Positions 6,979 to 23,392 of a stretch of DNA of 64,000 bases are shown piece after piece. Under the pieces are notes generated by a model. The model saw only the letters and a program-made list of their open reading frames with translations. It was not told the origin of the DNA and searched no databases. The position numbers and the translations under genes were made by a program. Within the stretch, counting starts at the first letter, position 1, and each line of letters opens with the position of its first letter. The stretch is taken from positions 31,739-95,738 of the IMG/VR virus record IMGVR_UViG_3300032356_000182. The stretch is one strand, 5' to 3'. This stretch comes from a virus.

Positions 6979-9642
6979 GTGTATATGAAAAGACGGGAAT
7001 ATGTCGTTGAAAGTCTTGCCCAGAGGATTTCTATCAAGCTTTTGAAAAAACTTGGAGGTCCTGGTTCAGGTCATCACGGTCATGCAGGAAGACCTGGTAA
7101 GCGTGGTGGCCCTGCTCCTTCTTCTGGAGGTGCCTCTATCGGTGTATCTGATGGCAAAGAATATGAAGATTTGGCTTTCAGAGATAGAAAGCCAGGAGAA
7201 TCTGAGCAATCTTATGAATCTGATAAACATAAGCATAATGTTGATGTCCAGCTGAAGCTTGTTGAGGACAGCGACAGTCTAGATTTTCATCGGCGGGTAG
7301 TCTGGGGTGAAGGTAGGGATGATCTGTCTCAAGAATATAAAGAGATACAAGAAGGAATTATCAATTGGCAAAGTGAGTGTCATCTTGATATAGGTAGATT
7401 CTTAAGTGGGGAGATTGAAGATGACTCCCAGCTTAGCGTTTACGACAGTATAGATGAGCTTCGGGAGGACATCTCTAGATTGGATCTCGCATTTGAGAAA
7501 GCTCCTTCCTTGCCTTATGGTGTAGTTGTTAGAAGAGGATTAGTTAGTTCTTCTGGGCTCGCTTCTCTCCTCTTGAGCAGAAATCCAGAGGATCTTGTCG
7601 GAAAGGTTCTGTTTTGCAGATCTTTTATCAGCACTTCAATTGATAAGGATATTGCTGATCTTTTCTCCCAGACCTCTCTATCCAAAGGAGACAAAACAGT
7701 TACTTTTAGTATCAAAGTGCCGGCTGGAGAGAAGTTTATAGTCTTGGCTAACGACGAGCTTGAGATTCTGCTGAATCGAGATTTACGATTTGAGATTGAG
7801 GGTTGTTCTATCATTCCGGGGGAATATGAGAAATATGAGTATCAGCTTAAGGTTGTTCGAGAGAAACCTCCAGACATCAAATTTTCTGAACGAGTGCTAG
7901 CTCTAGGAGGTCCTGGTTCAGGATTTCATGGTCATGCTGGTCGCCCTGGTAAACGTGGTGGCTCTGCTCCGTCAAGTGGTATTAGTAAACTATTCTCAAT
8001 CGTGCTTAAGGATCGGAAGACAGCTGAATCAATTATAAGCAATGAGTTAAAAGCAAGTTATTACGATTTAGACTGCGATTTAGACTCATTTTTGAAATCT
8101 TTTGAGAAGCTAATTGAAGATGTTGTTGACAAGCTTTCGCGGGAATATTTCGAAGGTGTTAGCAAGATAACATTTGATCCACCGGAGGGATTTAAGTGGC
8201 TTACTAGTACAGAGGGCATGACTTCTCTTGGTATCTATGACGTTTTTCGACAAAGTATTCATCTAAATCCTGTGCTTTTGCTCCCGTTTTATCGAGATAA
8301 AGCTCAAAAGGTTTTTGTTCATGAGCTGGGCCATCATGTTACAGACAATACTGGAAAGATAGCGAAAGATCTAGTTTCAGAAAAAGTGAATCCTTCAGTG
8401 GATGATACTGTATTTAATGATGATGTGCTGCATGAGTTACATGGGTTTTATTTAGTTTCCGGTCCTGGAAGCTTGAATAGGCTAGGTTTGCGAGAGTATT
8501 CGTTTTATTCAAAAGATGAGCTTGCTGCCGATGTTTTTATGACGTGGGCTCTTGGCTCTGAGTCTCAAAAAGAGGCTCTGGCCGAATTCTTGAAGGTAGG
8601 TTCCTTAGATGATCTCTTTGCGAAATCAAAGGCGATGAAATTGGCAGATGCTGTTGTTAAACTGCCAGTGAAAAAGTTAGGAGGTCCTGGTTCAGGTCAT
8701 CACGGTCATGCAGGAAGACCTGGTAAGCGTGGTGGCTCTGCTCCTTCTTCTGGGATGAGAATATCTGAAAAGAATGTTGCTGAAGAAAGTCAAGATATGG
8801 GGGCTGAATTAGTTAAGCAAGTTCCAGTTTTTTATGGATTCTCTGGCATTAGAGAATTTGTAGAAAAGATTGCTTCAGCAGGTGTGAAGTTTCATACTAA
8901 TTTGTTTCCATCGAATTCAACTTTTATAAATTATTTGAGATATGCTGGAGTTGACTTATCTGAGTGCATGTCCGAAGAGATGGAAGTAAATGGTGAATAC
9001 CATCAAACGCTAAGAGCTTGCAAGATTAGAGGTATGCTTGCTCTAGATGAAGCGCTATCTGAAGTAAATCCTGACGTTTCCACTGGCAGATATGGTGTTG
9101 GAGATAGCATTCAGGTTCAGTGGACGAGGCATTCAACTGATGAAGGGAATTTTATTGATGCTTTTCAAACCCTTTCAGCTGAGGAGCAAGGTGTCCCTAT
9201 CAGAAGTCGAAGAGCGAAGCATGGTTCTAGCAAGTTTAAGGATAGCGCTACTGATACTGATTGGAAAATGGCTAAGGTCGCTTATGAAAGCGTTAAGAGA
9301 AGAACTCAAGAATTTTTCGAATCGAAGGGCTATGATCCTGAAGATGAAGTTTTGATTTTTAGAGGACAAGGACAAGGGCAATTTCAGGGTAAAGATATCA
9401 AAAACGGTAGCTATATCAAGTGGGAAGATATTGATTTGCATCCTCTGTCTTCCTGGTCTTTTAATCCTGCTACCGCGTATTCTTTTGCAGATGGTGGCAA
9501 TGGAGTTGTTATGGTAGCAACTATAAAAGTAAAAGATATCATAAACTATTCAATCACAGGATGGGGCTGCATCAATGAGGAAGAGGTGATTGCTCCGTGC
9601 AGTAAGCTAAGAAATATGCGTGTTATCTATGGGAGGCAGTAG
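6979..9642 (+). CDS. Tagged effector polyprotein 2: tag-ART-tag-HExxH metallopeptidase-tag-divergent ART
   Basis: Tags at 7051, 7903, 8677; VVVRRG/FISTS/ELEILL; FVHELGHH; LIFRGQ/LSSWS/EEEVI. Confidence 0.85.
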   Translation: MYMKRREYVVESLAQRISIKLLKKLGGPGSGHHGHAGRPGKRGGPAPSSGGASIGVSDGKEYEDLAFRDRKPGESEQSYESDKHKHNVDVQLKLVEDSDSLDFHRRVVWGEGRDDLSQEYKEIQEGIINWQSECHLDIGRFLSGEIEDDSQLSVYDSIDELREDISRLDLAFEKAPSLPYGVVVRRGLVSSSGLASLLLSRNPEDLVGKVLFCRSFISTSIDKDIADLFSQTSLSKGDKTVTFSIKVPAGEKFIVLANDELEILLNRDLRFEIEGCSIIPGEYEKYEYQLKVVREKPPDIKFSERVLALGGPGSGFHGHAGRPGKRGGSAPSSGISKLFSIVLKDRKTAESIISNELKASYYDLDCDLDSFLKSFEKLIEDVVDKLSREYFEGVSKITFDPPEGFKWLTSTEGMTSLGIYDVFRQSIHLNPVLLLPFYRDKAQKVFVHELGHHVTDNTGKIAKDLVSEKVNPSVDDTVFNDDVLHELHGFYLVSGPGSLNRLGLREYSFYSKDELAADVFMTWALGSESQKEALAEFLKVGSLDDLFAKSKAMKLADAVVKLPVKKLGGPGSGHHGHAGRPGKRGGSAPSSGMRISEKNVAEESQDMGAELVKQVPVFYGFSGIREFVEKIASAGVKFHTNLFPSNSTFINYLRYAGVDLSECMSEEMEVNGEYHQTLRACKIRGMLALDEALSEVNPDVSTGRYGVGDSIQVQWTRHSTDEGNFIDAFQTLSAEEQGVPIRSRRAKHGSSKFKDSATDTDWKMAKVAYESVKRRTQEFFESKGYDPEDEVLIFRGQGQGQFQGKDIKNGSYIKWEDIDLHPLSSWSFNPATAYSFADGGNGVVMVATIKVKDIINYSITGWGCINEEEVIAPCSKLRNMRVIYGRQ

Positions 9643-9645
9643 GAA

Positions 9646-22500: not shown

Positions 22501-23392
22501 AAAATTAGGCGGCCCTGGTTCTGGTCATCACGGCCATGCTGGCCGACCCGGTAAACGTGGAGGCAGTGCTCCTAGAAGTATCTACGATTATCAGGATTAT
22601 ACTGGAAGAGAAGCTGATTTCTTGGCCGATTATCAATCTACAGAGGAAGGTCAGCGATTTTATAAGGAGTACTTGACTCGACTAAAAGCTCTTGTGTTTA
22701 GAGAAAATATGTCGATGCCAAAGGAAGTTCATGAGAAGCTGAAGAGTCTGATTAATTATATAAACTTAGGTCATAGTCCTATAAATAGATATTTGCGTAA
22801 TTCGGATGCATTTGTTCCCTATGAAGACGAGGAAATACCTGAGATAAGAAAAAGGATATCTGATTTAGATGCTTTGTTCAAAGAAGTACCTGGTTGTTCT
22901 AAAGATATGATTGTTTATCGAGAAATTCATCATCTATCACAAACTGCAGAGAGATTTGTGAATGAAAAAGATAGATTGATTGGAAAAATCATCAGGGATG
23001 AGGGTTTTTGCAGTACAACAATAGACAGAGACGTAGCGGAAAAGATGGATCGTGGTCCCACATCTTGGTGGTATGATCATATGAGGATACCTGGAGAAGG
23101 GATACCAGCTAGAGTTTTATTTAAGATAAAAGTTCCGAAAGGAACCAGAGGCATCTATATCGAAAATGAAGTAAGAGAAGAGAACGAGTTTCTCTTGAAC
23201 AGAGGTTTATCTTTTCGGGTTGTTAGCGTGGAGAAAAATCATCAGCCAGCATATTCCAGTGAAGGATATGATATCATAGCTCATGATCAGTATGAATTTA
23301 CCTTAGAGCTTTTGCCTGAGGTTAAAACTTTGGCTGAGATGCTTATCTTTCGATATAGAGCTAAACTGCGTAAAGAGAACAACCGATGCTAA
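19592..23392 (+). CDS. Tagged effector polyprotein 3: four modules (ART, putative His-type ART, ART, ART)
   Basis: Tags at 19619, 20477, 21719, 22505; YLYRG/FVSTS/EAEVIL; SYHVCT..GLKSR..ISVTT..DEWRI; VVYRG/FGSTS/EQELIL; IVYRE/FCSTT/ENEFLL. Confidence 0.87.
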   Translation: MNSEINLKKLGGPGSGFHGHAGRPGRRGGSAPRKSSEVKYHDYQGSQGPREAIYRFYQELSDKEREKIKEYINIPSDQVREPFYFYTSDPVSEVQKLFFLYTGGGFREINNYLRKDKKSAKPESSIYQVLTSDEIEKAVQTIDRLFQENSSTLPRNTYLYRGISGASNLAASLRSRLEKGETNIEFSDLGFVSTSLSPSSAAFFGHLHYRSQMPNQRQIMLKIRAPKGLKVLPVLGSEAEVILNRGSRFRIVKVIGEKRYRDYQKQYRYSGSVFDVFEVELVQQKNEKNLSEAIRLGGSGSGYHGHAGRPGKRGGSLPRNALSLDSLVARGIEPWTMSLSEFYNIMGVKRVSDSDSKTMSKEEYQAAIEKEFKVEDLYDRAIKERLALGLPVSDKVLEDEGAWLVRQALNSLQDFPQESYHVCTAKKQILEDGLKSRQELGMKAGIGLGGGDDSTISVTTNFRLAKDIFKVMREAQQVAAGKLTIREIWEDAKSYGEECAARCLTYFLPPPSLGLPEFKYDFKNPDNVPAGLKELLEGYETIYSSGDPNKSFPIRGSRWRQDKKDPKVWKRKLARSEVLERTWRFYSEHFLRVRQEAGGPEDPLFFGTDWKKLAKVKSENIAILKVRPKPGAKGFPVSGMDEWRIWTGKALEVEPIDLKSLVEQTILVYMDGLKPFSRTMKSDKKSGIGQSDKKSELIRSIDKLIDLLRLGGPGSGHHGHAGRPGKRGGSAPKEYRAYTREEFDSVFQSLTTPEYRDRYNCGDSRFVPKSQDDFSAFSVWRYVNDAYLGINSVLREAQNTGKSIEKVTDFQRSSLDDKFDTLDLIAGMDAAFAEAPRLPEPTVVYRGIPFDSVLKRNFDKLEPGFIIKDPKFGSTSLSRSLAEKWAGFPPEYLTPENEIGALLEIRLPKGTKFIYPNTSEQELILDRDGEYRVIDVRKEKAVVQYKYRDPRVYVQHVLVLERLPEKQKAKKLGGPGSGHHGHAGRPGKRGGSAPRSIYDYQDYTGREADFLADYQSTEEGQRFYKEYLTRLKALVFRENMSMPKEVHEKLKSLINYINLGHSPINRYLRNSDAFVPYEDEEIPEIRKRISDLDALFKEVPGCSKDMIVYREIHHLSQTAERFVNEKDRLIGKIIRDEGFCSTTIDRDVAEKMDRGPTSWWYDHMRIPGEGIPARVLFKIKVPKGTRGIYIENEVREENEFLLNRGLSFRVVSVEKNHQPAYSSEGYDIIAHDQYEFTLELLPEVKTLAEMLIFRYRAKLRKENNRC

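Follow-up and report, generated by a model that had tools for sequence, protein, structure and literature searches.

Phages carry capsid enzymes that disarm the host at entry, and these arsenals turn over fast. In phage T4, the internal proteins and Alt possess capsid-targeting sequences, that is, a short N-terminal label on enzymes carried in the capsid, and in the older "linker" version of the modular theory of phage evolution, shared short sequences serve as exchange points. For polymorphic toxins of the Rhs, CdiA and MafB types, the available text of Zhang et al. 2012 (PMC3482391) describes diversity as arising via recombination with cassettes, and variable enzyme or toxin modules are joined there to a constant part by a short conserved sequence. 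Phage-type polyvalent proteins string together ADP-ribosyltransferase (ART), zincin peptidase, ParB and kinase effector domains in a late or virion gene context, and "recombinational variability" by cassettes was raised for one kinase locus in the accessible part of that report (Iyer, Burroughs, Anand, de Souza, Aravind 2017, PMC5512222). Both arrangements, modules joined by a short conserved sequence and strings of such effector domains, recur in the DNA analysed here, a stretch of 64,000 nucleotides (positions 31,739 to 95,738 of the IMG/VR record IMGVR_UViG_3300032356_000182; hereafter, the window), the right-hand 64 kb of a virus record that is 95.7 kb long and bears direct terminal repeats. 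The element in question is a 23-residue peptide, LGGPGSGxHGHAGRPGKRGGSAP, encoded by 69 nt and hereafter called the tag, of which the window holds 15 in-frame copies, all on the + strand and all at 4555-23588.

The 15 copies are spread over seven + strand genes between 4.5 and 25.1 kb (Table 1). A tag lies 9-38 residues from every N-terminus and between all modules; tags head all 14 cargo modules, and the fifteenth tag, at 16209, runs directly into a stop codon. The tags are islands of 55-67% GC in a genome of 41% GC. An nhmmer profile of the tag DNA over the window returned nothing beyond the 15 copies in expressed frames, and no additional copy was detected by a degenerate pattern search of the remaining 95.7-kb genome. 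Judging from its place at the head of every enzyme module set among the head-assembly genes, the tag is most likely a functional peptide first, namely, a packaging or processing label for capsid-carried proteins. It was found that DNA was exchanged between tag copies in this phage and that, in an unrelated tag-bearing phage lineage, cargo was gained or lost from tag to tag and cassettes were reordered. Apparently, the tag DNA also acts as an in-frame joint at which modules are lost, duplicated or swapped via homology between the copies; a probability of about 0.68 was assigned to this reading.

Similarity of the tag DNA was measured as identical codons at identical residues over the 105 tag pairs, with the tags' own codon usage as a conservative null and with Bonferroni correction. 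The median codon identity was 43%, compared with the 41% expected from the tags' own usage and the 34% expected from genome usage. Most tag pairs are synonymously saturated, and therefore, the uniform tag is kept by selection on the peptide and not by homogenisation of the DNA. In the tag sets of other phages, the median codon identity was 0.25-0.47 at loci with at least 3 pairs, except at one locus (L021; 0.60). Five of the 105 pairs exceeded the codon expectation after correction (P from 1e-7 to 6e-5). With tags named by their first position, the same codon was used at 21 of 22 shared residues in the pair 7051/8677 (P=1e-7), at 20 of 22 in 12249/14097, at 19 of 22 in 14097/22505, and at 19 of 23 in both 12249/22505 and 15324/21719. 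The members of these five pairs belong to different genes, at distances of up to 10 kb; N-terminal tags are paired with internal ones, and tags beside unrelated cargo are paired as well. The longest exact runs were 92, 57, 56 and 53 nt, and runs of at least 20 nt were present in 17 pairs. Only some tag pairs are thus good recombination substrates.

All identities quoted in the initial annotation, made from the letters of the sequence, were recovered on recalculation. Segments 12213-12304 and 14061-14152, described there as identical ahead of unrelated cargoes, agree at 92 of 92 positions and form a maximal exact match; the cargoes behind them, a PARP-like module of 447 aa and a module of 203 aa, gave no mutual match in BLASTP. 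The leaders upstream of this tract are diverged yet recognisably similar, and a 92-nt tract over diverged leaders is the pattern of a conversion tract on an older duplication. Segments 7051-7130 and 8677-8756, which had been called nearly the same including synonymous positions, agree at 74 of 80 positions. The two tags within them are 96% identical and head an ART module and a 298-aa module, respectively, between which a BLASTP match was absent. Since near-identical tags stand beside unrelated cargo, the history of the tags and the history of the cargo disagree. The near-identity of 8617-8697 and 16149-16229 amounts to 78 of 81 positions, the former segment lying behind a zincin-like peptidase and the latter behind an ART module. 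The module order is indeed swapped between two genes, being tag-peptidase-tag-ART in gene 4495 and tag-ART-tag-peptidase in gene 6979.

The copy at 22505 had been noted as a match to that at 14097, and 14100-14155 and 22508-22563 proved to be exact over 56 nt. In a column-shuffling test, the matches of 22505 to 12249 and to 14097 were clustered (P<0.0005 each). Because 22505 differs only in its first codon and over its ten final bases, the identity tract ends within the tag. A PHI-like compatibility test had 8 usable sites only. The tag at 16209 is a chimera of two types. Of 50 informative sites in its 60-nt leader and first base, 46 are of the 8677 type, and the six informative sites that come next, at +20 to +39, are all of the 7903 type; the switch of type sits in a 19-nt stretch common to 16209, 8677 and 7903.

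Relatives of this phage proved to be distant. A megablast of the 20.8-kb region against deposited phages gave no match, and a single-sequence portal scan of viral contigs revealed no relative. In the collections searched, the nearest relative had a terminase 55% identical to that of the window; this was positions 947-8865 of IMGVR_UViG_3300014656_001046 (L037), with a capsid protein of 63% identity and the head-gene order of the window. Its terminase, portal, MuF-position, protease, scaffold and capsid genes are adjacent, with no tagged gene between them. Given the same head-gene order with no tagged genes in this relative, the tagged genes of the window are considered accessory insertions into a conserved head module. 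None of the retrieved neighbourhoods of terminase relatives (L037-L047) contained a tag. The initial annotation had taken the tag DNA for a recombination anchor. As regards exchange between copies, this was borne out by the codon excess, the clustering of matches and the chimera; as regards cargo swapping in the phage's own lineage, we infer it only indirectly because no closer relative is available and those at hand carry no tags.

Movement of cargo was observed directly in another lineage. A pattern scan located the tag in 22 other viral contigs, including one set of four with portals 72-100% identical, and these four relatives possess four different tag-delimited arrays. Two of them, G001 and G003, are 95% identical, and the 786 bp (262 codons) missing from G003 correspond exactly to a single cargo with a single tag. 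Within the tag, 65 nt are covered by both alignments, and the change from one to the other occurs in the tag's first ~30 nt: base by base, G003 follows tag 1 until the tag's first bases, is mixed for ~25 nt and thereafter follows tag 2. A third member, G002, has the same cassettes as G001 (55-89% identity) in a different order and with a different partition into genes, and 5 of 11 alignment ends between these two lie at most 30 nt from a tag in both genomes (P=0.008). An unchanging cargo order among related genomes, the finding named in the initial annotation as contrary to cassette shuffling, was thus not seen in this tag-bearing lineage; the opposite was.

The arrangement is widespread. An 890-aa protein of another contig (L021, 7903-10572) carries an 11-aa leader, KEYHGKVILKG, together with the tag three times before unrelated modules. 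As a separate observation, this leader occurs once more at the C-terminus of the protein, without a tag. When 1.84 billion proteins were searched with a profile of the 15 tags, 3184 cluster representatives matched, and a single protein could hold as many as nine tags; the domains found in tagged proteins included ParB, ART, Zeta-toxin kinase, 2H phosphoesterase and MuF. Among the best 150 tagged proteins, 90 pairs of modules reached 40% identity or more over no less than 70% of their length. On the other side of the tag, the neighbour of these modules was non-homologous in 110 of 124 cases, a proportion inflated by a library that keeps only proteins of <50% overall identity, and swapped order was present in two protein pairs.

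The following course of events is proposed. Conservation of a near-invariant peptide would create 15 GC-rich repeats on the same strand and in the same frame, and it is through this uniform repetition that the tag DNA supplies homology. Copies with enough shared identity could then pair during recombination, and the phage has a RecA of its own: a full-length homologue (378 bits, E=8e-115) is encoded at G000:C1:9673-10449, upstream of the window, and no recombinase of the RecT, ERF or AAA_24 type was detected in the phage. In the non-crossover outcome, a short tract would be copied from one tag, often with its leader, into another. An in-register crossover, presumed to be rarer, would delete, duplicate or re-join whole tag-delimited modules. 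The product would always be in frame, and the resident leader would remain before the incoming cargo. Over time, this would produce paralogous tag-ART-tag units in new contexts, a terminal tag with no cargo, and cassette orders that differ among related phages.

Features of the window arrays may be viewed in this light. The homology of ART-a, ART-b and ART-c spans from tag to tag and ends there, and their contexts differ in all three cases, as would be predicted from duplication of cassettes at tags. Gene 15231 closes with a complete tag (16209-16280, with the stop codon), and read-through past 16277 would yield only 42 further open codons in frame and no hidden module; this tag is a "socket" or a deletion remnant. 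The degenerate third tag of gene 4495 with its 69-aa tail (6214-6492; no family match) may be a decaying cassette. We infer that the same process built the arrays of this phage and that the crossovers were dependent on homology.

A number of findings speak against the tag DNA as an exchange joint. Exact identity is shorter than 20 nt in 88 of the 105 tag pairs, which makes them poor substrates for recombination of the RecA type, and the parental tags in the G001/G003 case are only ~65% identical today. There are junctions that narrowly miss a tag: the tract copied to 16149 has its left end in cargo, at an 8-nt microhomology, and at 6229-6354 of L029 (G002), a truncated tag (GGAGSGSHRHAGRPGKQG), 7 residues and a full tag follow one another with no cargo between. 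The duplication and stub events behind the window arrays are old. Because the nearest relatives lack tags by the same head genes, the phage's own lineage provides no comparison of cargo order. Finally, junctions at tags could merely be the only ones that yield working proteins.

This last point leads to the main rival explanation, a filter by selection, in which illegitimate joins occur anywhere, only those at module boundaries survive, and the likeness of the tag DNA is a passive by-product of peptide conservation. The synonymous saturation of most tag pairs, which have no long identity, agrees with it, as do the diverged parental tags of G001 and the junctions just outside tags. The residue before the GG of the tag also fits this explanation. 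It is L in 15 of 15 copies of this phage; elsewhere, it is uniform within a phage and varies between phages, being mostly K, L or R (also D), with uniformity in 89 of 115 multi-tag proteins, and such genome-specific residues persist despite divergent codons, a sign of strong selection on the peptide. The uniform residue would fit a universal tag whose front edge forms a protease site specific to each phage. However, selection on the peptide leaves unexplained the perfect tracts of 92, 57 and 56 nt and the clustered matches between unrelated flanks, and it does not account for the chimeric tag. Nor does it explain why the G003 junction is inside the coding tag and not elsewhere in the ~30-aa region of tolerant linker. 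A filter of this kind as the whole explanation was therefore judged rather doubtful.

According to a second alternative, the exchange was confined to gene conversion, or to recent local duplication of leader plus tag, with no movement of cargo, and the arrays go back to old independent fusions. The cargo paralogues are indeed old and saturated (41-56% codon identity at 29-54% aa identity). The peptidase pair (29% aa identity) and the ART pair (54%) differ in divergence, and therefore, the swapped module order was not a single recent event; composition likewise gives no sign of recent cargo import. However, pairing intermediates that yield conversion also yield crossovers between direct repeats, the other lineage shows real cassette loss and reordering at tags, and the paralogy of the ART modules stops at tags on both sides. 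Conversion alone thus seems improbable. With respect to composition, two codon "dialects" were noticed among the tags, C-ending in 12249, 14097, 15324, 21719 and 22505 and T/A-ending in 7051, 7903 and 8677. The GC content at third codon positions (GC3) of the cargo is uniform at 0.28-0.37 and has no relation to these dialects, so that their import with cargo from donors of differing composition was ruled out.

The phage was found in one public sequencing run only, a hot-spring metagenome, which is probably its source. The contigs of an independent assembly of this run equal all unique segments of the locus with zero differences and end exactly 30 nt into each repeat (7083, 12242/12275, 14090/14126), where shared 31-mers begin or end. 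Since these breaks match the behaviour of a 31-mer graph at truly shared sequence, the repeats are present in the graph of the reads. The contig depth is even at 25-33, with 29.9 between the 92-nt repeats against 32.5 and 33, a difference within noise and uninformative as to junction variants. The run data consist of contigs that break at near-identical tags, with no joints reported between them, and the order of segments is hence unconfirmed by them. A usual read is longer than these repeats, which measure 53-92 nt. Collapse or mis-joining at the tags by the assembler, which might have faked identities or module order in this metagenome assembly, whose independent counterpart breaks at every near-identical tag and in which an in-register mis-join would still leave an open frame, is very unlikely given that the shared k-mers are real, that a two-copy repeat permits one linear order only, that depth is even, and that the pattern of a few near-identical tags recurs in the contigs of other phages.

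Table 1. Tagged genes and tag copies in the window.
Feature	Position	Strand	Description
Gene 4495	4495-6492	+	tag, zincin-like peptidase, tag, ART-a, tag, 69-aa tail
Gene 6979	6979-9642	+	tag, ART-b, tag, zincin-like peptidase, tag, 298-aa module
Gene 12186	12186-13661	+	leader, tag, PARP-like module (447 aa)
Gene 14031	14031-14777	+	leader as in gene 12186, tag, 203-aa module without known relatives
Gene 15231	15231-16280	+	tag, ART-c, leader, tag, stop
Gene 19592	19592-23392	+	tag-ART, tag-391 aa, tag-ART, tag-ART; 1266 aa
Gene 23406	23406-25115	+	tag, 508-aa module; head protease directly downstream
Tag copy 1	4555-4623	+	N-terminal tag of gene 4495; divergent LGGLGSGHYAHAGRPGLRGGSAP
Tag copy 2	5368-5436	+	separates peptidase-a from ART-a
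Tag copy 3	6214-6282	+	degenerate (GRPSFQGGPAP); followed only by the 69-aa tail
Tag copy 4	7051-7119	+	N-terminal tag of gene 6979; 57 nt exact against copy 6
Tag copy 5	7903-7971	+	separates ART-b from peptidase-b; 37 nt exact against copy 10
Tag copy 6	8677-8745	+	follows peptidase-b; 60-nt leader and first 20 nt recur at 16149-16229
Tag copy 7	12249-12317	+	within the 92-nt tract 12213-12304 (36 nt of leader and 56 nt of tag)
Tag copy 8	14097-14165	+	within the second copy of the 92-nt tract, 14061-14152; cargo unrelated to that behind copy 7
Tag copy 9	15324-15392	+	N-terminal tag of gene 15231; 65/69 identical to copy 13
Tag copy 10	16209-16277	+	chimeric, in 16149-16277 with leader copied from the tail of peptidase-b; stop directly after, no cargo
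Tag copy 11	19619-19687	+	N-terminal tag of gene 19592
Tag copy 12	20477-20545	+	same codon as copy 4 at 15/19 shared residues
Tag copy 13	21719-21787	+	65/69 identical to copy 9
Tag copy 14	22505-22573	+	56 nt exact against copy 8; differences cluster at both ends
Tag copy 15	23520-23588	+	N-terminal tag of gene 23406

The cargo was classified by comparison with family models. The module types above Pfam cut-offs were six ART modules and one PARP-like module; ADPrib_exo_Tox exceeded its cut-off in five genes, and PARP did so in gene 12186. Two zincin-like modules have HExxH motifs (HEIGHH and HELGHH), and their SprT-like and Zincin_1 matches were below threshold (17.7 and 18.7 bits compared with a cut-off of 25.6); no polyvalent-specific model matched them. 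Several cargo modules had no family match. For the 298-aa last module of gene 6979 (8746-9639), no Pfam match was obtained, and an R...S...E-like pattern (FRG, SWS, EEEV) was discerned by eye; this module may be another ART. Genes 4495, 6979 and 19592 each hold 2-4 modules, and unrelated effector domains thus share one polypeptide. ART-a, ART-b and ART-c had only one another as detectable relatives. When outside relatives were sought for the cargo of gene 14031 and for ART-c, only the proteins themselves were returned by a word-indexed search, which covered near lengths only. The tagged genes are interleaved with those for the terminase (10259-12031), a Mu-type portal (16854-18344), the head protease, the scaffold and the major head protein. 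Promoter and terminator scans remained at the level of shuffled sequence.

A broader proposal may be put forward tentatively. The peptide is retained by thousands of unrelated phages, and the tag might be an exchange joint common to many phages, the DNA-level counterpart of exon shuffling, through which co-resident phages would swap capsid-delivered enzymes by crossover within the tag, each keeping its own leader with the protease site; the tag DNA might then be under second-order selection for recombinability. If the tag does double as an exchange joint, this would explain how the arsenals diversify with packaging signals intact. It would also supply a concrete case for the old dispute over whether phage mosaicism arises via shared "linker" sequences or via random joins filtered by selection. 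In practice, "cut at the tag" is a simple parsing rule for thousands of unannotated giant phage proteins.

Compared with the known systems, the new element here is exchange at the tag on the level of DNA; no mention of the tag motif was found in the literature searched. As in polymorphic toxins, the exchange takes place at the conserved junction; here, however, the junction is repeated up to four times per protein and 15 times in the genome, each tagged open reading frame (ORF) has its own start, and the carriers are head-region genes of a phage, not substrates of secretion systems. The likeness to polymorphic toxins drawn in the initial annotation holds as a functional analogy and does not extend to immunity genes or silent cassettes. 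No silent or orphan cassette sharing the tag was revealed by the tag-DNA profile of the window or the pattern search of the remaining genome, and no immunity gene is evident after the cargo: modules abut inside single ORFs, and the sole small ORF that follows (13705-14007) was not scanned against family libraries.

By its multi-module genes set among late or virion genes, the system of the window can be classified as a member of the polyvalent-protein kind. In the available text on those proteins (PMC5512222), neither a conserved tag between domains nor DNA-level exchange at a defined junction was found, whereas the junction here is defined to the nucleotide. In the MuF polymorphic toxins of temperate phages, a head-morphogenesis protein has variable C-terminal toxin domains, and the accessible part of that description (Jamet et al. 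2017, PMC5576092) was found to refer neither to a conserved motif or linker nor to recombination. Among the tagged proteins of the profile search, one begins with a Phage_Mu_F domain; in the window, by contrast, the protein in the MuF-like place (18397-19554) has no tag, and the cargo gene is a separate one. Relaxed homologous recombination in phage mosaicism (De Paepe et al. 2014, PMC3945230) likewise uses short imperfect matches in otherwise unrelated DNA as exchange points, whereas the shared sequence here is coding, selected as a peptide and frame-preserving across the joint, and the recombinase is RecA and not an annealing protein of the Rad52 kind. With regard to the capsid-targeting sequences of T4, the uniform residue before the tag is what would be expected of a protease site, but conservation among unrelated phages is much higher for the tag than for the T4 sequence, and the tag is used internally as well as at the N-terminus.

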